From: an uncultured Myxococcales bacterium
Lineage (GTDB): Bacteria; Myxococcota_A; UBA9042; DTJE01
Direction of reading: 5' to 3'
DNA: 64,000 nt
Assembly: GCA_903936705.1 (NCBI GenBank)
Contig: CAIZWN010000073.1
Location: 26,061 to 90,060 of the forward strand
Under the pieces are notes generated by a model. The model was not told the DNA's origin. It was given only the letters and a program-made list of their open reading frames with translations, and did not search any database. This document shows, piece after piece, positions 17,930-53,729 of the stretch (its first letter is position 1; the number at the start of each line of letters is the position of its first letter). The position numbers and the translations under genes were made by a program.

Positions 17930-19480
17930 ATGCTTTCGCCATTCATCAACGAGACCTATCTGGATTTCTCGATACCGGCGAACCGCAAGTCCATGATGGA
18001 TGCCATCGGGTTGGTCGAGGGCACGTTCGGGAGGCACTACCCCTTGAACGTTGGCGGGAAGGAGATTTACACCGATCGGGAGATCGCGTCGCTGAATCCA
18101 TCGGACCCGTCGCAGGTGGTGGGTTTCGTTTCGTCGGCCACGCCCGAGATTGCCGATCAGGCCGTGCGCGCTGCCCATGAAGCGTTTGCGGCATGGTCGA
18201 GTTGGCAACCCGAGGCTCGCGCCAGGATCCTCCTGCGTGCTGCGGCGATCATGCGCCGCCGTCGGCTGGAACTTGATGCCGTCGAGGTGCTGGAGGCAGG
18301 AAAGCCCTGGCTGGAGGCCGATGCGGACGTGGCCGAGGCGATCGACTTTTGCGAATTCTATGCGCGCGAGGCGATTCGCTATGGCGCGCCCCAGCCGACC
18401 GTCCAGTTGCCTGGCGAAGAGGACACCGCCTGCTATATCCCGTGCGGGGTGACCGTCGTAATCCCTCCGTGGAACTTCCCGCTGGCCATAGCTTGCGGAA
18501 TGACTACCGCGGCTCTGGTGGCGGGCAATACGGTCGTCCTGAAGCCGGCATCGCCGACGCCAGTCATCGCCTGGTATCTGGCCCAGATCCTGCGCGAGGC
18601 CGGTCTGCCGGAGGGTGTCCTGCAGTTCTGTCCAGGGTCGGGCGGTGCCATGGGCGATACCCTGGTGGCCCATCCCCTGACAAGAATCATTGCGTTCACT
18701 GGCAGTATGTCGGTCGGCATCCACATCAACGAACTGGCCTCGAAGGTACAGCCGGGGCAGATCTGGCTGAAGCGCGTGATTGCCGAAATGGGCGGCAAGG
18801 ATGCCATTGTCGTTTGCGACGATGCGGATGATCTTTGCGAGGCGGCAAGGGGCGCGGTGGCCGCTGCATTCGGGTATCAGGGGCAGAAGTGCAGCGCATG
18901 CAGCCGGCTGATCGTGATGGATGAGGTTTATGACAAGGTGGTTGCTTGCGTTGTCGAGGCAACCAGGGAGATCACTGTTGGAGCGTCCAAAGACTTGGCC
19001 AGCCGGATGGGCCCGGTCATCACCGAGTCCGCGATGAAGAGCATCATGGCTTACATTGAGATCGGCAACGGCGAGGGGACCTTGCTTTGCGGGGGCTTTC
19101 GCGCCGAAGGGCCGGGGTATTTCCTGCAGCCGACGGTGTTTGGCGACGTCAAGCAGGGCGCGCGCATCGAGCAGGAAGAGATCTTCGGGCCGGTGCTGGC
19201 AATCACGCGGGCCGTGGATTTCGACGATGCCCTGCGGATTGCCAATGGCACCATCTACGGCCTGACTGGGGCTCTTTACAGCCGCAGCCGCCAGCGTTTG
19301 GAACGGGCACGTCGTGAATTTCACGTCGGCAACCTGTACCTGAATCGCAAGTGTACCGGCGCCATGGTCGGCGCCCATCCGTTCGGGGGATTCAACATGT
19401 CGGGAACCGATTCGAAAGCGGGCGGTCGCGACTACCTGGCTCTGTTTATGCAAGGAAAAAGCGTGGCCGAGCGGATGTGA
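17930..19480 (+). CDS. pruA: L-glutamate gamma-semialdehyde (1-pyrroline-5-carboxylate) dehydrogenase, ALDH family
   Basis: The N-terminus FINETYLDFS...GK.Y.DREI.S.NPSDPS.VVG matches RocA/PruA-type P5CDH. ALDH Cys and Glu regions are present. RBS GGTGGAGGA precedes the start. Confidence 0.8.
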   Translation: MLSPFINETYLDFSIPANRKSMMDAIGLVEGTFGRHYPLNVGGKEIYTDREIASLNPSDPSQVVGFVSSATPEIADQAVRAAHEAFAAWSSWQPEARARILLRAAAIMRRRRLELDAVEVLEAGKPWLEADADVAEAIDFCEFYAREAIRYGAPQPTVQLPGEEDTACYIPCGVTVVIPPWNFPLAIACGMTTAALVAGNTVVLKPASPTPVIAWYLAQILREAGLPEGVLQFCPGSGGAMGDTLVAHPLTRIIAFTGSMSVGIHINELASKVQPGQIWLKRVIAEMGGKDAIVVCDDADDLCEAARGAVAAAFGYQGQKCSACSRLIVMDEVYDKVVACVVEATREITVGASKDLASRMGPVITESAMKSIMAYIEIGNGEGTLLCGGFRAEGPGYFLQPTVFGDVKQGARIEQEEIFGPVLAITRAVDFDDALRIANGTIYGLTGALYSRSRQRLERARREFHVGNLYLNRKCTGAMVGAHPFGGFNMSGTDSKAGGRDYLALFMQGKSVAERM

Positions 19481-24695: not shown

Positions 24696-24761
24696 GCATG
24701 GGTTGCTGGCGGGACTGCTGGTGCCATCGACTGCAGTCGCTGCAACCTAAACGGGGGATTC

Positions 24762-24944
24762 ATGAAACGGAATGTCTGCCTGGTTTGCGGCTACGCGTTT
24801 GATTCCTCGATCGGGGACCCGGTTGGCGGCATTCCTGCTGGTACGGCGTTCGAGGATCTGCCCGAGGGGTGGGTCTGTCCCGAGTGCGGCGCCGAGAAAC
24901 AGATGTTCGAGCTAGAGGAGACTTCAGGGGGGGGCAATTCATGA
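24762..24944 (+). CDS. Rubredoxin
   Basis: The motifs are CLVCGYAFD and W.CPECG (CxxCG x2), with the aromatic core and FEDLP. RBS GGGGGA precedes the start. Confidence 0.92.
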
Positions 24945-26101
24945 ATCCTCGGACGTGCGTCATAGTGGGCGGGGGTGTTGCCGGGATCGAGGCTGCCACT
25001 GCTTTTCGGGCCCGGGATGCCGACTCGCGGATCCTGGTTCTGACGGACGAGCCATGGCCATTCTATGCACGGATCCGGCTGGGCGAGGTCGTTGACGGGC
25101 GCCTGGATCCGCAGGGACTCTTCCTGCGGCTGGATGCCTGGTATGCCGAACAGCGGATCCAGATGCAGCGCGAGGCTCGTGTCGATGGAATCGATGTGCC
25201 CGGCGCGAGGGTGCGGCTGGCTGGTGGCGAGTCGATCCCTTATGACGCCCTCTTGCTGGCCGTTGGCGCGCGGCCGTTTCTGCCGCCGTTTCCGGGGGCT
25301 GAACTGAACTCGGTTGCAACGTTGCGTTCCATGAATGACGCTGTGCAGTTGAGGCGGCGGATGGTGCCCGGCGGGACGTGCGTTGTCGTGGGAGGAGGGC
25401 TGCTTGGCCTGGAGCTGGCGGCATCGATGGCCGGCACCGGGACTGCGGTCACGGTCGTAGAGGCCGCTTCATGGCTGCTGTCGCGGCAAGTCGATCCCGA
25501 GGGTGGCGCGGTTCTGCAAGGGATGCTTGAACGAAAGGGTGTCGCGTTCCGTCTGGGCGCAGGCGTTCTTGGGGTCGAGGAGTCTGGAAATGGTGCGGCG
25601 CGTGTCCTGCTGAAGGGCGGGGAATCGCTGTCGGCCGATCTTGTGGTGGTGTCTGCGGGAGTCCGTCCCGATACAACGCTGGCTCGCGAGGCTGGTCTGG
25701 CAGTGGCCCAGGGAATCTCGGTGGACGATGCGATGCTTACATCGGCCCCGGGCGTATGGGCGGCCGGGGACTGTGCGCAGCACGGGACTGGGCTGTACGG
25801 CTTCTGGAGCGCAGGTGCCGAACAGGGGAAGGCGGCTGGTGCGTCAATGGCCGGTGCGGTGGTCAATTACAAGGGGACCGTCAGGCAGACGACCCTGAAA
25901 ATTACTGACGTGGCCGTTTTTTGCATCGGGGACATGTCGGCGCCATTTGACCGGCAGGAGTCGTTCCAGGACGGTGATTCATACCGTCGCGTGTTGATGG
26001 ATGCCGCTGGCCGGGTTGCCGGCGCGGTACTTGTCGGGAATCTGGATGAGAGGAAGGCGTTGGTGGTGTCGTCGATGACCGGGCGTCCATATCGGCCTTG
26101 A
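24941..26101 (+). CDS. NAD(P)H-dependent rubredoxin reductase-like FAD oxidoreductase
   Basis: It has two Rossmann motifs ([13 protein letters not shown] and [14 protein letters not shown]). The ATGA start/stop overlap with rubredoxin is seen directly. Confidence 0.75.
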
Positions 26102-26136
26102 GTCAGGCCGCCGGAACGGTCAGGAAGGAGGGGATC

Positions 26137-26655
26137 ATGACGGTCGAGGTAGCGATTCGAACTGCTATGGAGTACGAGGCCAAGGTGCGGGACACATATG
26201 CAGCCGAGGTGGTTCTGGCCACGGATCCGGTGGCGGTGCGCGTTCTGACTCTGCTGGCGAGGGAGGAACAGGGACACCTGGATTACCTGGTGGACCGCAT
26301 GCGGGAATGGACTGAATCGGGCACGGTCAAGCTCGAGAAGCTTGGAACGCAGGTCCCATCGGCGCAGCTCCTGGCCAAGGGCATAAAAGGCCTGGAAAGG
26401 CGCATGGCAATGACGGACGAGCAGCGTGCTTCGGCGCTTGCGACATTGAGGAAGGCCGAGGCAGCCGAGCGGGCGACGGCACAGTGGTACCACAAGGTGG
26501 TTGACGAGTTGCCCGGTGCTACCGAGAAGGCCCTTTTCAGCCGGTTCCTGGAGATCGAGGAAGGCCACGCGGCGATAGTGCAGGCCGAGATCGACTCGGT
26601 TACTGGGCTTGGTTTCTGGTTCGACGTTCCCGAGTTCAGGCTGGAATCCGAGTGA
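26137..26655 (+). CDS. Ferritin-like diiron protein (rubrerythrin family)
   Basis: Two E...EExxH half-sites are present (LAREEQGH and FLEIEEGH). The start overlaps the reductase stop region. Confidence 0.55.
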
Positions 26656-26710
26656 CGCTGCTGCCCCGTTCTTCTTTCTGACTGCCTTGCCACTTCAGGT
26701 TCCAGTCCCA

Positions 26711-28990
26711 ATGTTCAGGCCTTCGGGAGGTGCGACCTTGTCTTCTTCCGGTTGCGATCTGGCGATTGTGGGAATGTCGTGCGCCAATTGTGCGAAGGCC
26801 GTCGAACGTGCGGTCTTGCGCGTTGAAGGCGTCTCGTCGGCGCAGGTGAATCTGGCCTCGGAAACATGTTCGGTGCACTTTGATTCCTCGATTGCCAGCG
26901 TCGAGTCGATGGTTCGAGCGGTCGAGGCCGCAGGTTTCAGGGCCGTGCCAGCGCGAGACGATGGCCTTGCCGAGCAGGAGGCTCGAGAGGCCGACGAAAA
27001 GGCGCGGCGGCAGCGGTTCGTGATCGGCGTCATATGCACCGTGCCGCTGGTCGTGCTGGGGATGGCCTCGGATGCCGGGTTGTTCGACGCATGGTCGGCG
27101 CGCGCGCTGGTTCCCTGGGTGCTGTTGGGCCTTGCGACGCCGGTCCAGTTTTATGCGGGATGGGGATTCCTGGCCGGGGCGGTTCGGTCGCTTCGTTCGG
27201 GTACCGCCAACATGGATGTGCTGGTATCCCTTGGATCGTTTGTGGCCTATGGCTGGTCAGCCGCGATTCTGATTGCCGGCGTGTCCGGGCATGTCATGTT
27301 CGAGACGTCCGCCCTGATCATCACGCTGGTCCAGTTGGGGAAGATGCTGGAGGGACGGGCGCGGGGGCGGGCTTCAAATGCCTTGAGGGCACTGTTGAAT
27401 CTGGTGCCCGACATCGCACACTTGAGATCTACGGCTGGTGAAAAGGACGTCTTGGCCGCGGCCCTTCGGCCGGGCGACGTTGTTGTGGTACGGCCTGGCG
27501 AGCGCGTGCCCGCCGACGGCGAACTGTTGGCCGGGCAGTCGATGGTCGACGAAAGCCTGCTGACAGGTGAATCAATTCCCGTCGTCAAGTCGCCTGGTGA
27601 TCGGCTGTTCGGGGCTACGGTGAACGGCGATGGCCTGCTGACAATGCGCATTACCGAGGCCGGGGATTCGACTGCGCTTGCCCGCATCGTGCGGCTGGTG
27701 AAGGAGGCCCAGGCTGGCCGGGCGCCTGTGCAGCGGCTGGCGGATCGCGTTTCGGGGGTGTTCGTGCCGGTGGTGGTCGGGGTGGCGGTCCTGACATTCG
27801 TGTTGTGGTGGCAGATCGGCGGCGATCCTATAGCCGCCATGGTGAGGATGGTGGCGGTGCTGGTTGTTGCCTGCCCGTGCGCGCTGGGTCTGGCGACTCC
27901 TACCGCTATCCTGGTGGGCACGGGGCGCGGCGCCAGGATGGGCCTGCTGTTCCGCGGACCCGAAATCCTCGAGGCCACGTCGCGGCTGCGTGCGGTCCTG
28001 TTGGACAAGACCGGAACCTTGACCGCAGGACGTCCGGTCCTGACCGGGGTGGTGCCGATTGGCCAGATGGATGCGGACGAGGTGCTGGGGCTGGCTGCCT
28101 GTGCCGAATCGGTCGCCGGGCATCCGCTGGGGCGTGCGGTGGTCGATCATGCCACCCAGCGAGGGTTGCTGGTGATCCAGCCAGACCAGGCCAAGGTGAC
28201 GCCGGGACTGGGTGTAGAGGCCGGTGTGGGGGCGCGTACGGTGCGCGTAGGGCGGCCAGGATGGGCTTTGTCTGACGGCGTAATCGGGGCGTCCGAGGCG
28301 CTGGGGTTGGTAAATCGCCTGACGCAAGAAGGTGCGACGTCGGCGCTGGTGGTCGTTGACGGCCAGGCGGCAGCGGTGCTGACTTTTGCCGACGTCGAGA
28401 AACCAGGTGCTGCGGCCGCCGTGAAGGATCTGAAATCGCTTGGTCTGGAGGTCGCCATGCTGACGGGCGACTCGGAACCTGTGGCCAGGGCTGTGGCCGC
28501 GCGCCTGGGGATCGGGGTGGTGACAGCCGGAATTCTGCCTGATGGGAAGGCTGATGCGGTTCGCGCCGCGAGGTCGGAATTCGGCCCGGTCGCCATGGTC
28601 GGCGACGGTATCAACGACGCGCCGGCTCTGGCCGCGGCCGACGTTGGATTCGCCATCGGGACCGGTGCGGACGTGGCCATGGAGGCTGCTGACGTGACAC
28701 TGGTCGGCGGTGATCCGGCAGGAGTGGCGCGTGCCATCAGGCTTGCGCGTGCCACCCTTCAAACCGTTCGCCAGAATCTTTTCTGGGCGTTTGCCTACAA
28801 CGTTGCGCTGATTCCGATCGCCGCCGGAGTTCTGGCGCCGTTTCAGACCGTTCCCCACGTTCTTCGCGAACTGAATCCGGCCCTGGCTGCCGCGGCGATG
28901 GCATTGTCCAGCGTGACCGTGGTGTTGAACAGCCTGAGGTTGGCCGGACGAAGGATTACGGGCTTACCCGATAACGTCACCGGCGCCTGA
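26711..28990 (+). CDS. copA: Copper-translocating P1B-type ATPase
   Basis: The N-terminal HMA domain carries GMSCANC. The membrane domain carries the CPC motif, DKTGTLT and GDGINDAP. Confidence 0.85.
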
Positions 28991-29012
28991 CCCATCCCCT
29001 TATTGGTGCGCG

Positions 29013-29041
29013 TTGACACCCGCCGACCTGCGGGGTACAAC
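29013..29041 (+). promoter_or_regulatory. Candidate sigma70-type promoter TTGACA-N17-TACAAC about 30 nt upstream of the first BMC-P gene
   Basis: A perfect -35 hexamer and a 4/6 -10 hexamer at canonical spacing are seen directly. This is unusual in a 70% GC background. Confidence 0.3.
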
Positions 29042-29069
29042 CGTTCGGCGTGTTCCGGAGGCGTTTTCG

Positions 29070-29345
29070 ATGTACCTGGGCAGGGTGGTCGGGACGGTGG
29101 TTGCAACGCGGAAGTCGCCCGGGCTGGATGGCATCCGTCTGCTTGTTGTCCAGCCTTTGAACCCCGACCGGACACCCAGGGGCAACGTTCAGGTGGCCGT
29201 TGATGCCGTTTCGGCCGGTCCGGACGAGGTGGTCTTTCTGGTTTCCAGCCGCGAGGCATCGCTGGCGCTGGAGGATTCGTTCGTGCCTGTCGATGCGGCA
29301 ATCGTTGGCATAGTTGATTCCGTGGATGTGGAGGTCATGCCGTGA
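29070..29345 (+). CDS. Bacterial microcompartment vertex protein (BMC-P; EutN/CcmL/PduN family)
   Basis: [29 protein letters not shown]...[17 protein letters not shown]...[11 protein letters not shown] matches the EutN_CcmL fold pattern. GGAGG lies 8 nt before the ATG. Confidence 0.85.
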
Positions 29346-29659
29346 CGTTGTGTCGCGTCCTTGGGCCGGTCGTATCCACCATCAAGCACCCGACCTACAA
29401 GGGCCTGAAGCTGTTCGTGGTCCAGCCGGTCGATCCCGACGGCAGTGCGTCCGACCCTTCGTTCCTGGCCGTGGACGTGGTCCAGGCAGGGCAGGGTGAC
29501 CTTGTGCTGGTCAACAGCGAGGGCAACAGTACCCGCCAGATCCTGCAACAAAAGCAGTTGCCTATCAGGTCCCTGATCGTCGGGATAGTGGATGCGGTGG
29601 ACGCCAGGATTCCGGCAGCCCCGCCCGAAGGCACGGTTGCCGCGCAAGCCGACGCGTGA
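29342..29659 (+). CDS. Second BMC vertex protein (BMC-P) paralog
   Basis: [29 protein letters not shown]...[15 protein letters not shown]...[10 protein letters not shown] matches the same fold. The GTG start overlaps the upstream stop (GTGA). Confidence 0.85.
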
Positions 29660-29701
29660 AAGTGCCGGTCGCGTTGTCCCGACATCGAACCAGGTGCGTT
29701 T

Positions 29702-29998
29702 CTACGAGCGGCGGAGTCGGGCGACAATCCGATCCTTGACCGGGTTGCCTGCGTCGGCTGCGGTGTTCAGGACCAGGCTGGCCTCCAGTTGGTTCAGCCA
29801 GGCCTTCGTCTCCGGGAAATCCACACCGCGGCGAGTCACGGCGGCGGTCAGCGGCTCGGAAATCCCGAATCGCATCCGCACATAGCGCTCCTCTTCTTCC
29901 GAGAGCAGGCCCTGGGCGATCGAGGTGCGCACGTCTGCGCGGGTCAGGGTCACGGTCTGCGTCGTGGTCGTGGTCGTCGGTTTCGTCTTGCGGTCCAT
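29702..29998 (-). CDS. Small protein with a sigma-70 region-4-like HTH segment and a poly-Thr tract (hypothetical)
   Basis: LSEEEERYVRMRFGI resembles the RpoD region 4.1 sequence LTPREAKVLRMRFGI. GGAGG lies 6 nt before the ATG at 29998. The ORF-track start at 30019 lacks an RBS. Confidence 0.4.
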   Translation of the reverse strand: MDRKTKPTTTTTTQTVTLTRADVRTSIAQGLLSEEEERYVRMRFGISEPLTAAVTRRGVDFPETKAWLNQLEASLVLNTAADAGNPVKDRIVARLRRS

Positions 29999-30108
29999 TT
30001 GTTTCCTCCGAGCTGTCAATCCCCATCGGGGACTGGCGATAATCGCACGCCGCGGGTCAAGCTGCCAAGTTCCCGACAGTTCCCTGCAATAACAAGCAGG
30101 TGGAACGT

Positions 30109-37295: not shown

Positions 37296-38861
37296 TCACT
37301 TCGCAGTCGTGACCGGCAGCGACTCCACGCGAGGTCGTAGATCGACGGTCCGGCAAAGATTCCGGGCTGCAATTTCGCGGAAGGATTCCGACACTCGAGA
37401 GTCATCCGCAAGGTGACCCCAGAAATCGATGGCTGCATCCAGAACCGAACCAGCGACGTCCGCGACCTCGGGGCCCAGGATCAGCAGAACGTGGTCCATT
37501 CGGGGCAGTTCGCCTTGCCGCGGATGGTAGTGCATTGGCAGCATGTCGTAGACGGGCGCCAGCGTCGTCACACGTTGGCCGTCCAGCAGGAAGGCGAGGT
37601 TGCCGAAGTGCATATCAGTGTTCCCGATCAGGCGGCCAAAAGTCTCCAGCCAGCGCACTCGGCGCACCACGCTACCTGGAACGATGCCCCCGGCGGCAAG
37701 AATTTCGACCGCAGCCGTCCAGCTGGTCAGGTTCGTGCCAGCGAACTGGGCATCCAGGAACTCCAGTGCGACCTGTCCTGTGCGGTGGGAAACCTGGTCG
37801 CGGTCGAAACGTTCGATCTCCAGGAAAAGGCGGTTTCCGGCCGGCAAGATCGAGGCAATGGGAACATTGAAGCCGTTCTTTCCAACAGTCGAAAGTGCAA
37901 CCTGTTCGGCAACCAGCAGGTCAGCGACGCGGCGTCCAACCGATTCGTCTGTCGGGGGCGAGAATTTGACCAGCACGGGAGTCACGTGGTCTCCATCGCG
38001 CCGCGTGGCCAGGAACTTCGGTTGTTCTCCCGCTGCCGAGGACCCTGCCGTGCCGAACGAAAGCAGATCCGACGCGATCGCAGGATAGCGATCTTGGCGT
38101 TCAGTCACATCGACTGAATTCGACGGCCGCTGAACCTCCTCAAGGAATCGGGAACACGCTTCGTCTCCGATGATGAACGCGCCGGGCTGGTCCCATCCGT
38201 AGCGCGATGCGAACCGCAGCGCATGATCGGCGGACCACATTCGGATGTCGGATGGCAGGCCCAGTTCTGGGTGTCGCTGCGGCACCAACCGCCCTAGGAA
38301 CCCGGACGGTCGTGCGCCCTGCAGAAACCATGGGAGGTCATCGAAGAAACGGCCGCCATCGTCAGAGGCGAAGTAGAAGCCGCGTTCCCCGATGGCGCTG
38401 AGGCTGCCGAATCGACGCGGTTTTTCCCCGCGAGGGCGGACTTCGTAGATGACCAGCGGTTGTCGTACTCCCGGAATTTCTCGCGCCAGGCCGTATCGTC
38501 TATCGCGAGTGCGCCCGAACGAAAGCACTTCGCCACGAAGTGATGAGACCAGTCGCGAGAACGTTGGCTGGCTGACGCCAAGTTCGCGTACCAACACGGA
38601 CGGATTTACCAAGCCCCTGCGGGCCAGCAATGAAAACAGACGCTCCCGAAGGTGCGCTCTTGGGTCGTTAGGTTCCACGTAGATATGAATAGAATGCTGA
38701 CGATAAAAAAGCAAGGATTCGCCAGAGGTTAGTTCGATACAATTGGTATTGGTGAATGAATACGTGAATGGTTGCTTGTGGGTAATGGCATCTGCGCTCC
38801 TCAATCCAGCGGTCAAGTGCCTTCTGGTAGCTTTAGGTTCGCGATATTCGATGGTCCACAA
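37296..38861 (-). CDS. HipA-family Ser/Thr kinase with a fused N-terminal HTH (HipH/YjjJ-like); start uncertain
   Basis: The HTH is LVRELGVSQPTFSRLV. The HipA core is GEQPKFLA...KFSP...IGNTDMHFGNLAFL, with the D-x-H-x-x-N catalytic loop. A GTG near 38678 is an alternative start. The 5-prime end lies in an AT-richer stretch. Confidence 0.7.
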   Translation of the reverse strand: MWTIEYREPKATRRHLTAGLRSADAITHKQPFTYSFTNTNCIELTSGESLLFYRQHSIHIYVEPNDPRAHLRERLFSLLARRGLVNPSVLVRELGVSQPTFSRLVSSLRGEVLSFGRTRDRRYGLAREIPGVRQPLVIYEVRPRGEKPRRFGSLSAIGERGFYFASDDGGRFFDDLPWFLQGARPSGFLGRLVPQRHPELGLPSDIRMWSADHALRFASRYGWDQPGAFIIGDEACSRFLEEVQRPSNSVDVTERQDRYPAIASDLLSFGTAGSSAAGEQPKFLATRRDGDHVTPVLVKFSPPTDESVGRRVADLLVAEQVALSTVGKNGFNVPIASILPAGNRLFLEIERFDRDQVSHRTGQVALEFLDAQFAGTNLTSWTAAVEILAAGGIVPGSVVRRVRWLETFGRLIGNTDMHFGNLAFLLDGQRVTTLAPVYDMLPMHYHPRQGELPRMDHVLLILGPEVADVAGSVLDAAIDFWGHLADDSRVSESFREIAARNLCRTVDLRPRVESLPVTTAK

Positions 38862-38865
38862 GAAC

Positions 38866-39855
38866 CTACCGAAGGAACACGTTCTCGTTGTGCCACTGCA
38901 ACAGTTCAGCAGACGGCCTCAGGTCCGGTGCCGAGGGGACGTTGACCTGCCGGTCTCGCATTGCGTAGTAGGCAACGCCGTTTTCCCAATCCTCGCGCAG
39001 GCGGCCGCTGACCCTAAACTCGTGGTCGGGAGTGATCGTCACATAGCCATGGTCGAACAATCGGTGCACATCCGACCGCAGGAGGATGCCATTCCGAATA
39101 TCGTTGGGGCCGTCCTTTGCGAACGGCTTGATATGCGCCGCTTCCAGCACCGGGAGGGAATGTTCGCCCGTGACAGCGCATGCACCGTAGACATCAGTCA
39201 CTACCGCGCGAAACGTGCCCTGACCCAGACGTGGCTTAACCAGAATGGGCTCTCCGTATCGGGCTGGACGATCGAGGAGTTGAGGGGTGACGGTCAGCCG
39301 AGCCTCAGCCATGCATTCGTCCCAGAGTCGATGTCCCTCCCCGGAGGACAGGTCATAACCTTTCGTTGTGACGATGTTTGGCGACCAGTCGGACGGTTGT
39401 GCAATCCATCGTTCCTTCTCGAAGAACACAGGCTGCGACAGCAGGATGCATCCGATCGGGCCATGTGGGTCGCCCCCGTTTCGAACGCGGTACTCGGCCG
39501 TGCGACGACGGAGGCTTTCTTCCGTCGGGTTCCCGTTTGCCTGGCCGAAAAGCTCCCAGGCTCGCCAGTCCGGTATGACGACGTAGCGGGCAAAAAAGCC
39601 GAAGCCCACAATGACGTTGTGTGGCGCCTTCAACTTGAAGAAGAACGGTTCGCCCGGCACGAGAGCGCTAAAGGCTCCTCCCGACGGTTTCCAAAAGTTG
39701 ATCTCCTCGAGCCCGGTCCTGTTTTCAGCAATAGATTGGCGCTGACGCTCCAGCAAGAATCGGTACCATTCGAAGTCGGTGTTGCCGACACTGCCACGCA
39801 CAGAATTTCTCCGAAATACTAGACGGGAAGTATCCCAGACGGCTGTGGGAGTCAA
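38866..39855 (-). CDS. HNH endonuclease family protein (HNH_2 type, restriction-like) with an uncharacterised N-terminal domain
   Basis: The C-terminus GACAVTGEHSLPVLEAAHIKPF...NGILLRSDVHRLFDHGYVTI matches the HNH_2 motif (C..TG...AAHI.P...NG..L..D.H..FD.G). Confidence 0.65.
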   Translation of the reverse strand: MTPTAVWDTSRLVFRRNSVRGSVGNTDFEWYRFLLERQRQSIAENRTGLEEINFWKPSGGAFSALVPGEPFFFKLKAPHNVIVGFGFFARYVVIPDWRAWELFGQANGNPTEESLRRRTAEYRVRNGGDPHGPIGCILLSQPVFFEKERWIAQPSDWSPNIVTTKGYDLSSGEGHRLWDECMAEARLTVTPQLLDRPARYGEPILVKPRLGQGTFRAVVTDVYGACAVTGEHSLPVLEAAHIKPFAKDGPNDIRNGILLRSDVHRLFDHGYVTITPDHEFRVSGRLREDWENGVAYYAMRDRQVNVPSAPDLRPSAELLQWHNENVFLR

Positions 39856-43866: not shown

Positions 43867-44445
43867 TCAATTCAGACTGGCCCGTCGCAGCAGTTCTTCA
43901 ATGCTGAGGAGTTTGTCCGGATAAAGCTTGTTCCATGTCAATGCAAACGACTGCGCATGAAGCCGAAAAGAGCCCAGGGCTCTGGGCAGGGTCTCGATGA
44001 AGCCATCAACGAACCGATCGCGGTCGAAGCCATCAAGCTTGACCAATCTGAAGATATCCTCGCTGTCCTTCGCCCCCATCCGAAACATCTTCATTATCGC
44101 AAGGTCCTCGGGACATGGAACGGACACATGAAGTCGTCCCTTCGGTCCCTGATAAACCTTCCTGGCATGCTCCAGCCAGTCCTCCGGAAGAAACGCATCG
44201 AAAATTGCGGACCGCAAATTGATGTCAATCGGGGGTCGTCTTGCGCTGGCGATGGTCCGCATCACCAACAGCCCATCCTGGGTCAGTGTATCAATGTCGC
44301 GGGTTGGGTGAGGCTTGTCGGGGCAAAGCAACTGAACCGCTGCCCCCCCTACGAATACGACGTGCGCTTCGGTTTTCAACGTCTTGTCGACCATCCGTAG
44401 GAAATCCTTCAGTTCCCTGAGTGATAGTTGCGCCCACTCCAACAT
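43867..44445 (-). CDS. Nucleotidyltransferase-fold protein (GG...DxD), possible toxin/antitoxin-type NTase; the start overlaps the upstream ORF
   Basis: HVVFVGGAAVQLL......TRDIDTL fits the minimal NTase motif hG[GS]x(9-13)DxD. Confidence 0.4.
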   Translation of the reverse strand: MLEWAQLSLRELKDFLRMVDKTLKTEAHVVFVGGAAVQLLCPDKPHPTRDIDTLTQDGLLVMRTIASARRPPIDINLRSAIFDAFLPEDWLEHARKVYQGPKGRLHVSVPCPEDLAIMKMFRMGAKDSEDIFRLVKLDGFDRDRFVDGFIETLPRALGSFRLHAQSFALTWNKLYPDKLLSIEELLRRASLN

Positions 44446-45025
44446 TGCGAAGATGCCTCCTAAAAAGGTCGGTGCTAAAGCTGCCGAAGACCCTGTGCCT
44501 GCATAGTGGCTCAGGTGTGGATGCTACCGATCGTTCAACGTCGGCCAATGGCCCTCCAAAGAAGAATCCCTGGTAAGGATCCTCAGTTTGACCCCAGGAT
44601 TCAGCAAGCCTGCCCAAGTTGTCGTTGGAGGTCAGTTCTGCTGCCATTGCGGCGGCGGCGGCCAGCAAACGCATCTCCAGGTCGGACTTGCAGCGCAACC
44701 GCGCCAGGGAAGTCGGATCGAGCGCGGCCAAGGCGGCAGGGAGAACCTCAAAGGCGCGTGCATCCTTCTCAGCGGCAGCTCGGTGCACGAGTGCCAGTAC
44801 TTCGGCAATTTGGGCTGTCGGATCATCCTCGCGTGGCAAGAGATCGGTTGGGTCAACCTCGATGGCCCGGGCAACCTTTCGGACTCCTTGGCTTAGTGGG
44901 TCGAAGTCGGTTTGGAGCATCTTGTAGATGGCCTGACGGGAAAGTCCCGTTCGTTCGGCCAAGTCCAGGACGCTGAGTTGTCGGCTCTCCATCAACTCTT
45001 GCAGCCGAACCGAGAACCCGCTCAT
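44291..45025 (-). CDS. XRE-family HTH transcriptional regulator; the C-terminal 60 codons overlap the next ORF and look non-coding (possible frameshift or fusion)
   Basis: The HTH is LSVLDLAERTGLSRQAIYKML. GGAGGTG lies 4 nt before the ATG at 45025. Confidence 0.5.
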   Translation of the reverse strand: MSGFSVRLQELMESRQLSVLDLAERTGLSRQAIYKMLQTDFDPLSQGVRKVARAIEVDPTDLLPREDDPTAQIAEVLALVHRAAAEKDARAFEVLPAALAALDPTSLARLRCKSDLEMRLLAAAAAMAAELTSNDNLGRLAESWGQTEDPYQGFFFGGPLADVERSVASTPEPLCRHRVFGSFSTDLFRRHLRNVGVGATITQGTEGFPTDGRQDVENRSARRIRRGGSGSVALPRQASPNPRH

Positions 45026-47867: not shown

Positions 47868-47959
47868 CTCGGGTTCAAGCCACTACGATACGTGCGGGTT
47901 CGTGTGTACACCTGCCCACGTTCGCAAAGTGCGCCTACTTGACGACGGGGAGACCTGCC

Positions 47960-50900
47960 ATGCGTTTCAGCACGCTCGCACCATGTGGAAATCGCAGGGG
48001 ACCTCAGTCCTGGAAAGCACTGCTGTTCGTGCTGGCGGTCGCAGTGTTCGCGGGTTGCGGGGGTTCGGGCAGTCCTGCCGGCGGCCCCTGCACGACCACG
48101 GCCGACTGCGTCGCCACTGGCGCCGTTTGCGCAAGCCGCCTGTGCGTGGCGTGTCAGGTTTCGGCCCAGTGCGTGGACGGGTACGGGGTTGGGGCGGTCT
48201 GTACCGACGGGGCTTGCCATACCGCGGCGGCTTGCCAGCCGGGCTCGGTGGGGTGTTCCTGCAACGTGGGGGCCTGCGATGCCGGCCAGTGCGTCGATGG
48301 CACGTGCGTGGATTGCCGCCGGGGGGCCCTGGCCTGTGCCTGTTACGACAACGGATCGTGCGATCGGGGCGGGCGCTGTGCCGCCGGGACGTGCGAGTCC
48401 TGCCCGGCCAGCGGGCAGGGCTGCCCATGCGGCGACGGTGGCGTCTGCGACGACGGACTTTTCTGCCAGAACCAGGTGTGTGTCGTGGACCTGTGCCAGG
48501 AGGGGACTGGAGGCTGCCAGTGCACGGCCCAGGGTACGTGCGAGGGTGCGCTGCGCTGCGGGGAAGACGGTCTCTGTACCGCCTGCACCAGCGACATCGC
48601 GGGCTGCCCCTGCGACGACGGCGCCTGCACCAATTACCTGGTATGCAACGCGGGGACCGCGACATGCCGGAAGACCGTGGCGTGCGTCGAGGCCGGGTGC
48701 GCATCGCACCAGTCCTGCCAGCAGTCCGCGGGGCAGGACGCGACGTGTCTGGAAGCGTGCGAGCAGGGGTTCGCCTGGAACGCGGGTACTGGCGGCTGCG
48801 ATCCTTCGCCTACGGCCACCTGCCAGGCCGACGTGGCGGGATCCATACTGGCCGACTGCACGACGATGAACCGTGTCTGTGTCACGGCACAGGAAGGCGC
48901 CCAGTGCGGCGCGTGCCTGGTCGGTTTCACGGGTGGCAGCGACGCCCGCGTGGCCTGCCGGGCCGTGTTGACGTGCGCTAGCCTCGATTGCGAAAGCAGG
49001 AACAGCACCTGCGCCCCCGAGGGTGATCATGCCGACGCGACCTGCGGGGCCTGCCTGCCAGGTTATACCCGGCTAGACGGCGGCTGCGTCAAATACGTGC
49101 CACCGACATGCGTCAGCCTGGCGCCGGGCAGCATTCTGCCCGACTGCCTGGCCGTCAATCGGACATGTACCCCGGCTGCCGGTTCGGTCCAGGCCCACTG
49201 CGGGGACTGCATCCCTGGCACCCTTCCGGCGGCGGACAACCCCGCCGAGTGCGTAGGGCCGACCGTCTGCGAGACCCTTTCCTGCGACGTGGTCCAGTAT
49301 TGCCTAACGGGTACTCCCGAGGAGGGGGCCAGGTGCGTGACCCCGAAATGTGCCGCGGGTTCGTCCTGGTCCGACGAGCTGGGCCAGTGCGTCCGGTGCA
49401 ACGTGGTCTGTGGTGACGACCCGGGCGAGACGGGGCGCATCTGGCTGGTCACCATAGCCGGGTCCCGGTCCGGCAGCGGCTGCCTTTGCGAGACGATGCC
49501 CGGCTACTACTGGGAAGAGGGTGATTCGCGGCGTTCCATCCCATGTGACGCCGACCACGACGGCTGGGTGCGCCAGCCGGCCCGCGCCTACGTTGAATCG
49601 GCCGACCCTGCCCTGGCGCAGAACGCCCGCTGCGCCGTCCACAGCATCGACCGGTTCAGCCTGCACAACGAGTATCGGCAGCGACTCGACGTGCTGCTGT
49701 GCGCCGATGGCTCTCTTCAGGCCGCCTACGACGGGGTGGCGCCGTGCCCGACCCGGACGATCCCGTTGTACGAATCGGTGCGCAACGACGACAACGCCGA
49801 GCTGTCGAAGGCGAAGCTGAACGACGTCCCTTCGTACGCCTATGATCTGGCCGGCCGAAGCCTGCGCGCCGAGGAACTGAACCCGCTTACGCGCGCCTGT
49901 ACCCTTACCGGGGACTATAACGACAACCAGGTTTCGGACCTGGGCGAGTGGCACGGCCGTTCGGCCCCGGGGGGCGCCGCCGCCCTCTTCGACCAGTTCG
50001 CATACTTCGTCGAGGTCGCAGGCAGCTACTACGCCAACAACGTGTCGCCTGGGCCCGGACGCTACGTCATCGAGGAGCGCTCGCGCTGTGCCGCCGGCCC
50101 AGGCCCCCAGGCCATTCCGTTCGCGTACGGGGCCGGCGACGGAGCCTATTGGCGGCAGTGCACCCGCAGCCGGGACACTGCCTTCGACCCCACCGACGGC
50201 CCGGCCACTCCCGACTTCGGCATGGACTTCGCGCGCTGGTCGTGCCCGCAGTCGGCCGGCGGATGCCCGGTCCCGCCCCCGCCGACCGACCAGGCGGTCC
50301 AGCAGGACACCCAGCCTGAGAACGGCGCCTGCGTGGTAGTCCTGCCACCCACGGACGCGGAATGCCTGGACGAGAACGGCCCCTGGACCTGCGTCGATGG
50401 TGCCGTGTGGCGTGGCCTGTCCAACTCCAGCCAGTTCCGATGCGTGAAAGTGGATGAAAGTCCCTCGAACGAGGCATCTGTTCTGAAGCCCGAGGCATTC
50501 ACCGACGAGTACCACTTGAATCGTTGCAGGGTGATCTGCCCCGACAGCGACCCGTACTGCACCGTGGACTGCGCCGGCGAATCTTGCGTCTCCTCGTCAG
50601 GGGCCGCGACAGGCACCGGCGCCAACCCCCGGTCCCCGGTGCTGCAGTGCCAGCAGGTCCAGTCGCCCCAGCCGGACGACGTGGGCTTTGCCCTCGTCCA
50701 ATACCACGACCCGCTGGCCACGGGTCTTTACGTGCGCGGCTGCATCAACGAATGGTCGCCCGACCCGATCCAGAAGGGTTCCGACAGCGGCAGCGGCGAT
50801 CCCGTGGTGGCCGCCTGGCGCGACCGTTGCCCCGGTTGGACCGGCGCTCCCAACATGATTGTGGGACTTGGCCTCGACGACGATTTCGGCCGCCTGAAGT

Positions 50901-52807
50901 GCGGCTGCGACGGGCCTACGCTGACCTTCTTCCGGGACCATGACGGCGACGGCTTCGGCGTCGATTCCGAGACGATCGGTGCCTGCGTCCAGCCCTACGG
51001 CTACTCGGCCAAGGACGGGGACTGCGACGACACGGTTCCAACCATCTACCCCGGCGCCTACGAGGACTGCAACTTCATCGACGACGACTGCAACCTGCTG
51101 GTGGATGACAACCCAGGCCCGGTCCTGAATCCCGTGCAACTGGGCGCATGCGAAGGCAAGACGCAGACGTGCGTCCAGGGCACCGGGTGGGTGCCCGACT
51201 ACAGCGCTGTGCCGTTGTTCGGGAAACCGGAGACGCCGGACGCGAACTTCCAGGACGAGAATTGCGACGGCATCGATGGCACCCTGGATGCCGCAGTATT
51301 CGTGGCGACAACGGGCACCAATTACCCCGACTGCGGCAGCCGCGACCGACCGTGCGAGACGGTAGGTTGGGGCCTGAAGCGGGCCGTCGTCCTCCAAAAG
51401 AGCGTGCTTTACATCAAGGCCGGGACGTACGAGGAGAGCCTGGATCTGGTCAACGGGGTCAACCTCTATGGCGGCTTTGACACGAATTGGGTTCGCGGCC
51501 CCCGGACAGTTTCGGGACACGAGACCGTCATCCAGGGCACGGCCCCTTTCCCCGGCGGGCTGGCCACCACCCTGCGGGCTGTCGGGTTGACGGCGGCCCT
51601 GGCCGACCTGGTACTGAAGGCACCGATGGTCCCGGCGGCGACAGGTGGGTACGGCGTATCCACCTATGTCCTCCACGCATCCTCCTCCGCCAACCTGACG
51701 CTGGACCGTGTCGACCTGTTCGCCAGCGCTGGCGGCGCCGGACCCGACGGCCTCGACGGGATCAATGCCGACCAGGCCAAGGCGTCCCAGGGCGGAGCGG
51801 GCACCAGCGCCAGCCGCGCCTTCGGGATCTGCGAAAACAAGAACAACAGTCCCGGGGGCTACGGCGTCGAGAACCCCAAGTGCGCTGGGACGGAGGGCAG
51901 CCAAGGGGGCCCTGGCGGTTGGGCGGACCTGTGCTGTGGCACGAACGGCTACTGCAGCGGATGCAGCTGTTCCGCCCAGTCCGGCACACCCGGCGCAGAA
52001 GCCTGGGACAGCGGCCTGCTGTTCTACGGCGGGGCCAACCTTCATTCCGGCGGGTCGGCAGGTACAGCGTCAAACGCCGGAGCGAGCGCGACGAACTGCC
52101 CGACGTGCGACGGGCAGAACGGCAGCGCAGGGTACGGGGGCGGGGTATGGAGCGGCATGATGAACGGCTACGTCGACCCGAAGTCTACCGAGTGGCGTGC
52201 CCAGGGGGGAGCTAGCGGATCGGTCGGCAGGGCAGGGCTTGGCGGCGCGGGCGGCGGCGGGAGCGGCGGGTCGGATGGGGTCAACTCCTACGGCGCTGGC
52301 GGCGGCGCGGGTGGCACCGGGGGCTGTCCAGCCACGGAAGCCGGCCGCGGCGGCGGGGGGGGCGGAGGGAGCTTCTGCATCTTCGCGACAAACTCGGTGC
52401 TGACGGTCCGGAACTGCCGTCTTGTCCTGGGCAACGGGGGCGCCGGCGGCCGCGGCGGCAACGGTGCCTGGGGTCAGCCGGGCGGGTTGGGCGGGCTTGG
52501 CGGGTCGGCCCTTGGCCAGTCGGGCGGGGCCCTGGCCGGCGGCAACGGCGCCCCGGGGGAGCAGGGCGGCCACAGCGGCGCGGGCGGCGGTGGATCGGGC
52601 GGTGGCAGCTACGGCATCTTCCGCTATCTAGGCGCGGTCTCCGAGACATCGAACACCTTCGAGGGCGGCGCCGGCGGGGCCGGGGGCAGCGGTGGGGTCA
52701 ACGGGGAGATCCGGATCGGCGCCGAGGGGCACGACGTTGAGTTCAAGACCGGCGAAAGCGGCCGCTTGGAGAGTGTCCACCAGTGCTACGACCTGACGTT
52801 CTGCTGA
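47960..52807 (+). CDS. Giant secreted lipoprotein (1615 aa) with an N-terminal Cys-rich CxC-G-C-GLxC repeats, MopE-like putative metal-binding motifs, a parallel beta-helix region and a Gly-rich C-terminal domain
   Basis: The lipobox is VFAGC, and GGGGAGA lies 7 nt before the ATG at 47960. The repeats are CPCGDGGVCDDGLFCQNQVC and similar. DHDGDGFGVDSETIGACVQPYGYSAKDGDCDD...PGAYEDCNFIDDDCN resembles the putative metal-binding motif. IFATNSVLTVRNCRLV-type beta-helix rungs and GGAGGxGGNG runs follow. Confidence 0.7.
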   Translation: MRFSTLAPCGNRRGPQSWKALLFVLAVAVFAGCGGSGSPAGGPCTTTADCVATGAVCASRLCVACQVSAQCVDGYGVGAVCTDGACHTAAACQPGSVGCSCNVGACDAGQCVDGTCVDCRRGALACACYDNGSCDRGGRCAAGTCESCPASGQGCPCGDGGVCDDGLFCQNQVCVVDLCQEGTGGCQCTAQGTCEGALRCGEDGLCTACTSDIAGCPCDDGACTNYLVCNAGTATCRKTVACVEAGCASHQSCQQSAGQDATCLEACEQGFAWNAGTGGCDPSPTATCQADVAGSILADCTTMNRVCVTAQEGAQCGACLVGFTGGSDARVACRAVLTCASLDCESRNSTCAPEGDHADATCGACLPGYTRLDGGCVKYVPPTCVSLAPGSILPDCLAVNRTCTPAAGSVQAHCGDCIPGTLPAADNPAECVGPTVCETLSCDVVQYCLTGTPEEGARCVTPKCAAGSSWSDELGQCVRCNVVCGDDPGETGRIWLVTIAGSRSGSGCLCETMPGYYWEEGDSRRSIPCDADHDGWVRQPARAYVESADPALAQNARCAVHSIDRFSLHNEYRQRLDVLLCADGSLQAAYDGVAPCPTRTIPLYESVRNDDNAELSKAKLNDVPSYAYDLAGRSLRAEELNPLTRACTLTGDYNDNQVSDLGEWHGRSAPGGAAALFDQFAYFVEVAGSYYANNVSPGPGRYVIEERSRCAAGPGPQAIPFAYGAGDGAYWRQCTRSRDTAFDPTDGPATPDFGMDFARWSCPQSAGGCPVPPPPTDQAVQQDTQPENGACVVVLPPTDAECLDENGPWTCVDGAVWRGLSNSSQFRCVKVDESPSNEASVLKPEAFTDEYHLNRCRVICPDSDPYCTVDCAGESCVSSSGAATGTGANPRSPVLQCQQVQSPQPDDVGFALVQYHDPLATGLYVRGCINEWSPDPIQKGSDSGSGDPVVAAWRDRCPGWTGAPNMIVGLGLDDDFGRLKCGCDGPTLTFFRDHDGDGFGVDSETIGACVQPYGYSAKDGDCDDTVPTIYPGAYEDCNFIDDDCNLLVDDNPGPVLNPVQLGACEGKTQTCVQGTGWVPDYSAVPLFGKPETPDANFQDENCDGIDGTLDAAVFVATTGTNYPDCGSRDRPCETVGWGLKRAVVLQKSVLYIKAGTYEESLDLVNGVNLYGGFDTNWVRGPRTVSGHETVIQGTAPFPGGLATTLRAVGLTAALADLVLKAPMVPAATGGYGVSTYVLHASSSANLTLDRVDLFASAGGAGPDGLDGINADQAKASQGGAGTSASRAFGICENKNNSPGGYGVENPKCAGTEGSQGGPGGWADLCCGTNGYCSGCSCSAQSGTPGAEAWDSGLLFYGGANLHSGGSAGTASNAGASATNCPTCDGQNGSAGYGGGVWSGMMNGYVDPKSTEWRAQGGASGSVGRAGLGGAGGGGSGGSDGVNSYGAGGGAGGTGGCPATEAGRGGGGGGGSFCIFATNSVLTVRNCRLVLGNGGAGGRGGNGAWGQPGGLGGLGGSALGQSGGALAGGNGAPGEQGGHSGAGGGGSGGGSYGIFRYLGAVSETSNTFEGGAGGAGGSGGVNGEIRIGAEGHDVEFKTGESGRLESVHQCYDLTFC

Positions 52808-52865
52808 TTCCGCCGAAGGTTCAGTTGCCTTCCCGTCTCGTCCAGCGCTTCAAGTTCCCATGGTG

Positions 52866-52888
52866 TGTCAATTTTACGCGACAGACGC
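52866..52888 (+). promoter_or_regulatory. GACAGAC inverted-repeat motif copy (TGTCAATTTTACGCGACAGACGC), 57 nt upstream of the 257-aa lipoprotein gene
   Basis: It lies 17 nt upstream of a TAGCAT -10-like hexamer. The spacing to the ATG is identical to that of the copy at 59957. Confidence 0.45.
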
Positions 52889-52944
52889 CGCAAGGTGCCG
52901 TGGGTAGCATTGCGCGGCGCTGACGTTCCACCCTGGAGGAGACC

Positions 52945-53718
52945 ATGGAGAGACCGTTGCTTGCGTTTAGTGCCTGCCTGCTATTGGTCATGGCCGCGTG
53001 CGGGGGCAAGAACACGTCCGCGTGCCCGGAAGGCACGACCAACTGCGCCTGCCGTGCAGACCTGACGTGCGACAGCGGGCTGGCCTGCAGCGATGGATTC
53101 TGTGTTGCGGGCTGCCACGAGGGCGCCGAAGGCTGCCCGTGCTACCCGAACGGCACGTGCGACTCGAAGGCCGGCGTGGCCATGGCCTGCCAGGACTCGA
53201 AGTGCGTGGTGTCGGCCACGCCAGTACTCGGCGACCTGGACGATCCCTGCGATTCGACGAAGCCATGCGGCAAGCACCAGGGAACGCAGCTCGAGTGCCG
53301 CGACGACACCTGTCAGTTGCCCCAGGTCGTTTGTCCGGCGGGCACCCTCGGCTGTCCCTGCGACGGTGTGACTTGCCAGGCCGGGCTCGTGTGCACGGCT
53401 GGACAGTGTGCGGCTGCGGCCGGGTCCGGTCTCTTCGTGGGCAGCGGCGACGTACGCGCCTGCGACGTGCTGGTCGAGAAGGCCGATGGCGTCGAGGTGC
53501 TATACGACGCCTCGGTGCTGGGCGTGACTGCCCGGGACGACGCCCGCCTGGCTCTGTCCTTCACGGCCAAGGCCGACTCGGCGCTTGCGGGGCCCGTGGG
53601 CGCGCTGGTGGGCGCCGACGGCAAGCCTGTTGGCGCGGGCACGGTGAGCCTGGCTAAAACCACGTGCTACGACAGGCACGGGTCGGCGGTGGCCGCCCCC
53701 GGCCTTGAGCTGAAGTAG
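52945..53718 (+). CDS. Cys-rich lipoprotein (257 aa) with the same CxC-G-C-GLxC repeat
   Basis: The lipobox is VMAAC. The repeats are CACRADLTCDSGLACSDGFC, CPCYPNGTCDS and CPCDGVTCQAGLVCTAGQC. GGAGGAG lies 6 nt before the ATG. The gene ends 12 nt before the RHS gene. Confidence 0.6.
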   Translation: MERPLLAFSACLLLVMAACGGKNTSACPEGTTNCACRADLTCDSGLACSDGFCVAGCHEGAEGCPCYPNGTCDSKAGVAMACQDSKCVVSATPVLGDLDDPCDSTKPCGKHQGTQLECRDDTCQLPQVVCPAGTLGCPCDGVTCQAGLVCTAGQCAAAAGSGLFVGSGDVRACDVLVEKADGVEVLYDASVLGVTARDDARLALSFTAKADSALAGPVGALVGADGKPVGAGTVSLAKTTCYDRHGSAVAAPGLELK

Positions 53719-53729
53719 GGGGGCCTAAC

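Follow-up and report, generated by a model that had tools for sequence, protein, structure and literature searches.

The shell of the Haliangium-type (HO) bacterial microcompartment (BMC) serves as the main structural and engineering model; to our knowledge, the function of the microcompartment itself is still unknown. Hoch_4425 and Hoch_4426 presumably represent the satellite BMC-P pair of H. ochraceum, and we know of no work that establishes the position of these two satellite paralogs at shell vertices in vivo, even in that organism. The HO type I satellite has been catalogued as two BMC-P genes together with a class II aldolase of family pfam00596 (Sutter et al. 2021, PMC8217296). The aldolase lies beside the BMC-P pair in 24 of the 30 catalogued HO type I loci and is missing in 6 of the 30 genomes (PMC8217296), so that it is typical and not obligatory. 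Also described is a BMC-P triplet, made up of 'gray' and 'orange' clade members and a third protein (Sutter et al. 2021, PMC8217296).

Here we analyzed a tandem pair of BMC-P genes in a 64-kb stretch of DNA (the window) from an uncultured Myxococcales bacterium. P1 (29070..29345, + strand) encodes a 91-aa vertex protein of the BMC-P (EutN/CcmL) family from the 'P1-like' paralog group, and P2 (29342..29659, + strand) a 105-aa BMC-P (EutN/CcmL) protein of the 'P2-like' group, with a GTG start that overlaps the P1 stop codon (GTGA). P1 and P2, which share ~40% identity, are confirmed as full-length BMC-P family proteins: both match the Pfam profile PF03319 (EutN_CcmL) end to end (profile positions 1–83 of 83), P1 with E = 2.8e-29 and 101.9 bits and P2 with E = 3.8e-25 and 88.7 bits, at a gathering score of 25 bits. 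The best PDB matches are solved pentamers, namely HO BMC-P (5V74/6MZX), 4I7A, and CcmL (2QW7/4JW0), with E-values of 1.5e-17 to 1e-8; the top match of both proteins is H. ochraceum BMC-P 5V74 (E = 1.5e-17 for P1 and 8.7e-12 for P2), and Hoch_5814 is the pentamer present in the solved shell structures among these matches. The initial annotation had called two adjacent paralogous BMC-P genes, to be abandoned if no significant EutN_CcmL hit emerged; the coordinates, the GTGA overlap, and the PF03319 and PDB matches bear this claim out. Assignment to the carboxysome CcmL/CsoS4 or EutN equivalogs was ruled out, since P1 and P2 score far under the NCBIfam cutoffs for CcmL (71.9 and 68.0 bits; cutoff 125), EutN (53.7 and 44.3 bits; cutoff 118), and CsoS4 (41.1 and 28.5 bits; cutoff 120), and the two proteins are therefore not carboxysome or Eut orthologues.

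A neighbor-joining tree divides BMC-P into three deep groups of paralogs, which occur together in several phyla. Myxococcota P1 and P2 fall into separate deep groups, both of which also include proteins from loci of other phyla; the third group holds Hoch_5814 and the HO main-locus proteins. This arrangement fits the description of the catalogued BMC-P triplet. As judged by sequence identity (59–96%), shared synteny, and tree position, the pair is clearly orthologous to the P-P-aldolase operons of Myxococcota, the comparison being made with Myxococcota P-P-aldolase loci. The nearest reference-genome locus is 75% identical; no metagenome contig exceeds 71% identity among the matches listed, and relatives closer than 71% were reached by exact-protein look-ups. 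The nearest named relatives are metagenome-assembled genomes of Myxococcota/Myxococcales/Polyangia, and every P1 orthologue begins with MYLGRVVG.

In all 31 of the relatives' loci examined, a class II aldolase gene directly follows P2. The order P1-P2-PF00596 aldolase is found in 12/12 Myxococcota reference-genome loci and in 11/11 metagenome loci among the matches listed, and it extends to the closest relatives. The closest of these, with a P1 about 93–96% identical, has kept the aldolase, and three relatives (L134, L135, and L006) share the flanking gene order of the window (L006 without CopA) yet retain the enzyme. Among the loci examined, only the window lineage is without it. The alignments with these three relatives place a deletion scar at 29656..29701 (+ strand), a 43-bp spacer between the P2 stop codon and a convergent gene, where the relatives have intergenic DNA and a class II aldolase gene of ~0.7 kb. 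Over its first 27–45 nt, the scar weakly resembles the 5′ end of the aldolase gene, with ATG changed to GTG: 14–17 of 27 and 20–23 of 45 positions are identical to the aldolase starts of the relatives, at a background of ~27%, and the share of window positions that match an aldolase start equally well is 1.6e-4 to 1.6e-2. The signal is only moderate, and we regard this stretch as a putative 5′ remnant of the aldolase gene.

The convergent gene that forms the right edge of the deletion (29702..29998, − strand; gene calls on contigs L001–L005) encodes a 98-aa protein with no assigned function and no Pfam or NCBIfam match. Its position behind the aldolase is retained in L006, L134, L135, L159, and the P0001 contig, and it does not belong to the BMC operon.

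Identical P1 and P2 sequences are present on 21 contigs from several samples, and the junction is identical in 5/5 contigs shown (L001–L005). Because these contigs come from five samples and independent assemblies, the aldolase-less junction is not an assembly artefact. A tblastn search of the window with three aldolases gave no match. As for a relocated copy, the only orthologues detected were those that still occupy the ancestral context: a single member makes up the 90% cluster of the closest relative's aldolase, and the aldolases next in similarity are in ancestral surroundings. Since all relatives, even the one with a P1 about 93–96% identical, retain the aldolase and only the window lineage lacks it, the comparison shows its absence to be, by all appearances, a lineage-specific and recent deletion. 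The initial annotation had presented the pair as an orphan. This state is derived from the ancestral and otherwise universal P1-P2-class II aldolase operon and constitutes neither a separate locus type nor a novel class of orphan; the only unusual point about the pair is the loss of the aldolase.

Upstream of P1, sequence reading identifies a sigma-70-type promoter-like element, TTGACA-N17-TACAAC (29013..29041, + strand), and a Shine-Dalgarno sequence, GGAGG (29058..29062, + strand), 7 nt ahead of the P1 ATG. The description of the element as near-consensus was too generous, as its −10 hexamer matches at only 4/6 positions and lacks the invariant T, but its position is conserved in three relatives: TTGACA-N17-TACAAA lies at equal distance from the ATG in L006, L134, and L135, where the surrounding intergenic DNA has diverged (dS ~1). 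A generic promoter scan omits 29013..29041 because the −10 hexamer ends in C, without the final T. The conservation of the motif supports a function as the putative promoter of the pair.

We surveyed the surroundings of the pair for other shell components. No PF00936 (BMC-H/T) protein is encoded in the 64-kb window, as judged by Pfam searches of all long ORFs (a GC3-based gene call being too noisy at the 64% GC of the window) and by six-frame tblastn with BMC-H queries that readily pick up the hexamer genes in control loci. Shell genes are likewise absent from the added flanks of ~9.6 kb on the left and ~6 kb on the right, ~80 kb in total, and no aldolase or metabolosome enzyme is found in the window or in the ~16 kb of added flanks. 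The earlier statement that the 64 kb hold no shell hexamer or trimer gene and no signature enzyme thus extends to ~80 kb, and no complete shell locus, which could have made the pair part of a standard locus, lies within ~9.6 kb to the left or ~6 kb to the right. The sole aldehyde dehydrogenase in the window (17930..19480; 516 aa, 10 kb upstream) was considered as a BMC enzyme and rejected, with 772.9 bits to NF002852 (cutoff 648), as a housekeeping L-glutamate gamma-semialdehyde dehydrogenase (P5C dehydrogenase).

An HO main locus was taken to require, in the same genome, BMC-H, BMC-T(dp), the third BMC-P, and an aldehyde dehydrogenase (AldDH) with an N-terminal encapsulation peptide. Four independent HO main loci, all from other organisms, have the form BMC-Tdp - BMC-H - BMC-P - AldDH - BMC-T; each encodes a single BMC-P and lacks an aldolase, so that the two remaining pentamers fall to a satellite. 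Among the BMC-H candidates looked up, no BMC-H, BMC-T, or third BMC-P could be linked to the genome of the window, so that a working shell is here assumed rather than demonstrated. Four candidates (P0138, P0141, P0127, and P0121) were assigned to other organisms: they come from different samples and differ in tetranucleotide composition, with correlations to the window of 0.76–0.84 versus 0.955–0.98 for its own flanks. BMC-H is too conserved for assignment by similarity, and the protein database was clustered at 90%.

We propose that the pair is probably an HO type I satellite operon of a Myxococcota microcompartment from which the aldolase has recently been deleted. The suggestion of a Haliangium-type satellite locus in the initial annotation agrees with (i) the orthology of the pair to P-P-aldolase operons, (ii) its detached position, and (iii) the lack of PF00936 genes over ~80 kb. 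In the ancestral operon, a sigma-70-type promoter would have driven BMC-P paralog 1, paralog 2, and the class II aldolase, with translational coupling. A deletion of ~0.8–0.9 kb would then have taken out the aldolase and left the promoter, the ribosome-binding site, and both pentamer genes untouched. From their sequences, P1 and P2 are predicted to form pentamers capping the vertices of a shell, which would be built of BMC-H, BMC-T, and the third BMC-P from a distant main locus, presumably of the form seen in the four loci above. The organism may run the organelle without this aldolase, or it may stand at an early stage of organelle loss.

If the microcompartment is in fact being lost, P1 and P2 would be the useless but still undamaged relic of a decaying system, a reading that we consider unlikely. 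In every relative, no gene is linked to the pair more tightly than the one that was lost here, no relocated aldolase orthologue was detected, and no main locus is tied to this organism, all of which would fit decay. Against it, both ORFs, their coupling, the Shine-Dalgarno sequence, and the promoter motif are intact, and a single allele is established over the 21 contigs from several samples. At conserved columns of the orthologue alignment (≥90% for P1), P1 carries 0 private changes and P2 carries 1, which does not exceed the number in relatives that retain the aldolase. The dN/dS values, 0.09–0.17 for P1 versus L134, L135, and L006 and 0.15–0.19 for P2 versus relatives, indicate that purifying selection acts on both genes, although, with so recent a deletion, they mostly reflect the time before it. 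For the same reason, the intact state of P1 and P2 is no proof of continued function, and the points against decay weigh little. Finally, the 6/30 catalogued HO type I genomes that lack the satellite aldolase suggest that a shell of this kind may be viable.

Another explanation is that the BMC-P paralogs have a role independent of any shell, for example as a scaffold or regulator of another process, and are therefore retained with no cargo or shell genes close by. The persistence of the pair in the absence of its aldolase would agree with such a role. However, nothing in the analysis points to a non-shell function; loci of other phyla place members of these paralog groups directly beside BMC-H, and all other Myxococcota pairs are coupled to a putative cargo enzyme. 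We regard this explanation as very improbable.

The flanking genes had also been read as a hint to expression conditions. CopA, P1-P2, and the block encoding the 98-aa protein, the FHA-sigma54 activator (EBP), and the Ser-Thr kinase occur together only in the immediate clade (the window, L134, L135, and partly L006); CopA is absent at the corresponding spot in L006, and in distant Myxococcota loci none of the window's flanking genes lies beside the pair. Because the neighbors are limited in this way, the hint has no comparative support, and the copper, redox, and signalling genes around the pair are not conserved partners of it. In the window, sigma-54 promoter matches number 96, at the level of chance (79 ± 9); none is a candidate upstream of the pair, and the one site close by, with 2 mismatches, falls within the P1 coding sequence. 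That P1 and P2 are locally regulated accessory genes tied to the Cu-ATPase/rubredoxin or the signalling block, as the recurrence of these neighbors in the immediate clade might suggest, is exceedingly improbable, given the restriction of the neighbors to that clade, the convergent orientation of the signalling block, the chance-level sigma-54 matches, and the conserved sigma-70-like motif of the pair itself.

That a class II aldolase is linked to the two extra pentamer genes counts among the few clues to HO chemistry. On the proposed reading, the population is a natural knockout of that aldolase in which both pentamer genes are unaffected, and all three genes are present in a very close relative; such near-isogenic lineages with and without the aldolase offer a comparison for the roles of the enzyme and of the 'extra' pentamers. 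Should the remainder of the shell locus have stayed intact in the genome, the aldolase would be dispensable or replaceable; otherwise, the locus would provide an early snapshot of organelle loss. Two stronger outcomes, that the pair is kept and expressed after the loss of its cargo aldolase in an organism without a functional shell or even without any shell genes, or that the aldolase is dispensable for the HO organelle, seem to us quite doubtful. The former, if true, would imply a role beyond vertex capping for a widespread paralog pair, and the latter, if true, would argue against the status of the aldolase as a signature enzyme. Taken alone, without the rest of the genome, the locus is an ordinary satellite carrying a small deletion.

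Compared with known systems, the pair resembles the carboxysome satellites (CcmK3/K4) and the CsoS4A/B pair in being detached or paired shell paralogs, which are thought to tune shell properties; CcmK3/K4 are BMC-H proteins, whereas the window pair belongs to the pentamer family. The FRAG types, known from Ignavibacteriae, Gemmatimonadetes, Planctomycetes, and candidate phyla (Sutter et al. 2021, PMC8217296), likewise have shell genes away from recognisable enzymes and a characteristic BMC-P triplet; the window pair differs in its apparent orthology to HO-type satellites and in that its enzyme-free state would be secondary. The ACI-type locus of Acidobacteriota (class II aldolase - BMC-H - BMC-P triplet) tightly links the same three BMC-P paralog groups and aldolase family, but combines them in one main locus beside BMC-H, whereas the window pair is detached and aldolase-less. 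From the HO type I satellite, the window pair differs in having no adjacent pfam00596 aldolase, owing to the apparent recent lineage-specific deletion; it shares with that satellite a tandem of BMC-P paralogs detached from BMC-H/BMC-T in Myxococcota, orthology to the 31 P-P-aldolase loci (some with identical flanking genes), and membership in two separate deep groups of paralogs, matching the BMC-P triplet.

The P1-P2 locus is most probably the known three-gene satellite operon of the Haliangium ochraceum (HO)-type microcompartment, secondarily deprived of its class II aldolase. Both genes of the tandem pair proposed in the initial annotation are present and both products belong to PF03319: P1 (29070..29345, plus strand) encodes 91 residues from an ATG with GGAGG 7 nt upstream, and P2 (29342..29659, plus strand) encodes 105 residues from a GTG that overlaps the P1 stop codon (GTGA). 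The two proteins are ~40% identical and cover the whole Pfam EutN_CcmL profile with 101.9 bits (P1) and 88.7 bits (P2) against a cutoff of 25, and their top PDB matches are solved BMC-P pentamers, headed by the H. ochraceum shell pentamer 5V74 (E 1.5e-17 and 8.7e-12, respectively). Both score far under the cutoffs of the NCBIfam equivalog models CcmL, EutN and CsoS4, and so fall outside these three named types of BMC-P. Sequences identical to P1 and P2 are found on 21 contigs (NCBI, JGI, Logan and ENA assemblies), and the five loci compared, from five samples, match the window in gene order; among named relatives, the closest are MAGs of Myxococcota, Myxococcales and Polyangia.

In a scan of reference genomes, 12 Myxococcota loci carried the tandem pair with no BMC-H in the available flanks, and many Acidobacteriota, Planctomycetota and other loci carried a BMC-P triplet beside BMC-H. 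Clustering of the flanking ORFs gave one conserved neighbour, present in 12 of 12 Myxococcota loci on the same strand directly 3' of P2 (212–290 aa), which Pfam assigns to the class II aldolases (PF00596, E 1e-39 to 1e-46). A neighbour-joining tree places Myxococcota P1 and P2 in two separate deep paralog groups, each common to the loci of other phyla, with Hoch_5814 and the main-locus proteins as a third; the three groups match the BMC-P triplet catalogued by Sutter et al. 2021 (PMC8217296). The orthologous P1-P2-aldolase loci in Myxococcota support the earlier suggestion that the window holds an HO-type satellite pair. In one Myxococcota subclade (L007, L009, L055, L059–L062), P1 directly follows the stop codon of a conserved gene whose product ends in '...FxVDIPIVVTA', which implies a longer operon there.

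Pfam scans of all long window ORFs found no PF00936 (BMC-H/BMC-T), aldolase or PduP/EutE-type enzyme, and six-frame tblastn of the window with four BMC-H sequences gave a best E of only 0.13. In dozens of control loci the same queries picked up hexamer genes readily, which gives weight to the negative result, and the reported lack of shell and signature enzyme genes in the 64 kb stands. The sole aldehyde dehydrogenase (17930..19480), adjoined by a methionyl-tRNA synthetase gene, was rejected as a microcompartment enzyme: it is a housekeeping L-glutamate gamma-semialdehyde dehydrogenase (772.9 bits, curated cutoff 648). A shell locus immediately outside the window, the finding that the initial annotation held to count against its reading, was not encountered either: flanks added through exact-protein look-ups of DnaK and a 2073-aa protein (~9.6 kb left, ~6 kb right) contain no shell gene and no aldolase; they encode TPR and polysaccharide-export functions, a further giant protein, and one protein each of the FGE-sulfatase and Nmad2 kinds.

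The aldolase is missing where relatives have it. Its start lies within 140 nt of P2 in 30 of 30 relatives' loci with DNA; in the window, the P2 stop (29659) and that of a convergent 98-aa gene (29702) are 43 bp apart, and tblastn with three aldolases found no match in the whole window. The gene is likewise absent from five same-lineage contigs, and 1.2–10 kb are present beyond P2. The closest relative's P1, P0001, is 96% identical by the search tool (6 of 91 residues differ by our own count), and the gene calls on its contig read P1, P2 (104 aa), Aldolase_II (230 aa), a convergent 96-aa gene and the activator. The closest locus from the reference-genome scan is 75% identical. Two further loci, L134 (82%) and L135 (79%), match the whole gene order of the window, plus the aldolase: rubredoxin, reductase, 172-aa gene, CopA, P1, P2, aldolase, small gene, FHA/sigma-54 activator and kinase. 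In DNA alignments the match between the window and these relatives breaks off where P2 ends and picks up again at the small gene's 3' end, with a GTG standing where the relatives' aldolase ATG overlaps the P2 stop. Over the next 27–45 nt the window agrees with the aldolase 5' ends of these relatives at 14–17 of 27 and 20–23 of 45 positions (background ~27%), an equally good match being found at 1.6e-4 to 1.6e-2 of window positions; this putative remnant lends moderate support to a deletion, the case for which comes mainly from phylogenetic distribution and synteny. The loss is recent. The initial description of an orphan pair is therefore right in that no shell or enzyme genes lie nearby, and wrong in so far as it implies a locus type of its own.

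A non-orthologous aldolase may replace the lost one; DeoC-type aldolases occur elsewhere in some HO genomes (Sutter et al. 2021, PMC8217296). Relocation of the orthologue found no support: the organism's contigs are well covered in a collection of 5.8 billion proteins, where a relocated copy would be expected to appear and none was seen. There, the L134 aldolase retrieved the closest relative's enzyme (P0249, which shares a 3,019-bp contig with P0001), whose 90%-identity cluster has one member; the next sequences, 86% and 83% identical, come from other samples and retain the ancestral P2-aldolase-small gene context. The aldolases of L134 (10599..11291) and L006 (10590..11297) and P0249, all of the close clade, extend C-terminally ~45 aa past PF00596 ('...LPDPVVRMLLDLRTKSGLGPSGRARAKALPK'), which by eye could be a putative encapsulation-peptide-like helix.

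The reading frames and coupling of P1 and P2 are intact. In an alignment of 25 orthologues, P1 has 0 and P2 has 1 private changes at columns with 90% conservation or more, within the range of aldolase-keeping relatives; dN/dS against L134, L135 and L006 is 0.09–0.19, mostly reflecting pre-deletion time. The pair's own promoter-like element, previously read from the sequence as TTGACA-N17-TACAAC (29013..29041, plus strand), recurs as TTGACA-N17-TACAAA at equal distance from the ATG in the same three loci, where nearby intergenic DNA has diverged (dS ~1), and the element is a phylogenetic footprint; a generic promoter scan omits it because of its last base, C. TTGACA also lies upstream in another subclade, and in a third P1 directly follows the upstream gene. 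Synonymous divergence of P1/P2 is 1.0–1.4 between the window and each of L134, L135 and L006 and 0.4–0.8 among these three, and the window has the lower GC (64% vs ~71%) and the lower GC3, a pattern suggestive of a shift in base composition along the window lineage.

The proposal that flanking copper, redox and signalling genes hint at expression conditions found no support, as they accompany the pair only in its immediate clade: in L006 this position lacks CopA, and more distant Myxococcota loci have none of these neighbours. The signalling block (98-aa gene, FHA-sigma-54 activator, kinase) is convergent to P1-P2, and matches to the sigma-54 promoter occur in the window about as often as expected by chance, with none upstream of P1. 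The region 24700..28990 (9370..10000 in L006) carries a cluster of rubredoxin, rubredoxin reductase and a 172-aa weakly rubrerythrin-like protein (Pfam E 0.0025). CopA follows this cluster in L134, L135 and the window; in L006 the cluster runs straight into P1, which makes CopA an indel at the site. The conserved 98-aa ORF (29702..29998, minus strand), always downstream of the activator in the close clade, has no Pfam or NCBIfam match, a poly-Thr N-terminus and a 'LSEEEERYVRMRFGI' motif resembling sigma-70 region 4; a promoter-like TTGGCA-N18-GATTAT lies by it (30068..30039).

Elsewhere, 37296..39855 and 43867..45025 (minus strand) hold two toxin-antitoxin-like or defence-like pairs, a HipA_C kinase beside an HNH_2 endonuclease and a DUF6036 nucleotidyltransferase overlapping an HTH_26 protein. 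A giant-gene block (47939..64000, continuing in locus L155), preceded by a LuxR-type response regulator, lies in the highest-GC quarter (68% vs 61–63%) and encodes a 1615-aa protein with a MopE metal-binding motif, a Tc-toxin-like 2073-aa SpvB/TcdB-midN/FG-GAP/RHS protein and a 2076-aa protein with no Pfam match.

Four independent HO main loci share the order BMC-Tdp, BMC-H, BMC-P, AldDH (488–492 aa) and BMC-T, with one BMC-P each and no aldolase; gas-vesicle genes (GvpL/GvpF, CDC48-like AAA ATPase) lie a few kb from one HO-type main locus (L166 1..3319, GCA_022360315.1). With 7,978 matches at E ≤1e-20, BMC-H is too conserved for assignment by similarity, and the four BMC-H candidates looked up for the window organism all came from other samples (tetranucleotide correlation 0.76–0.84, vs 0.955–0.98 for the window's own flanks). 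The window lineage represents a natural, near-isogenic aldolase knockout, of modest added interest for the HO organelle; HO genomes with no satellite aldolase are already in the catalog of Sutter et al. 2021 (PMC8217296).
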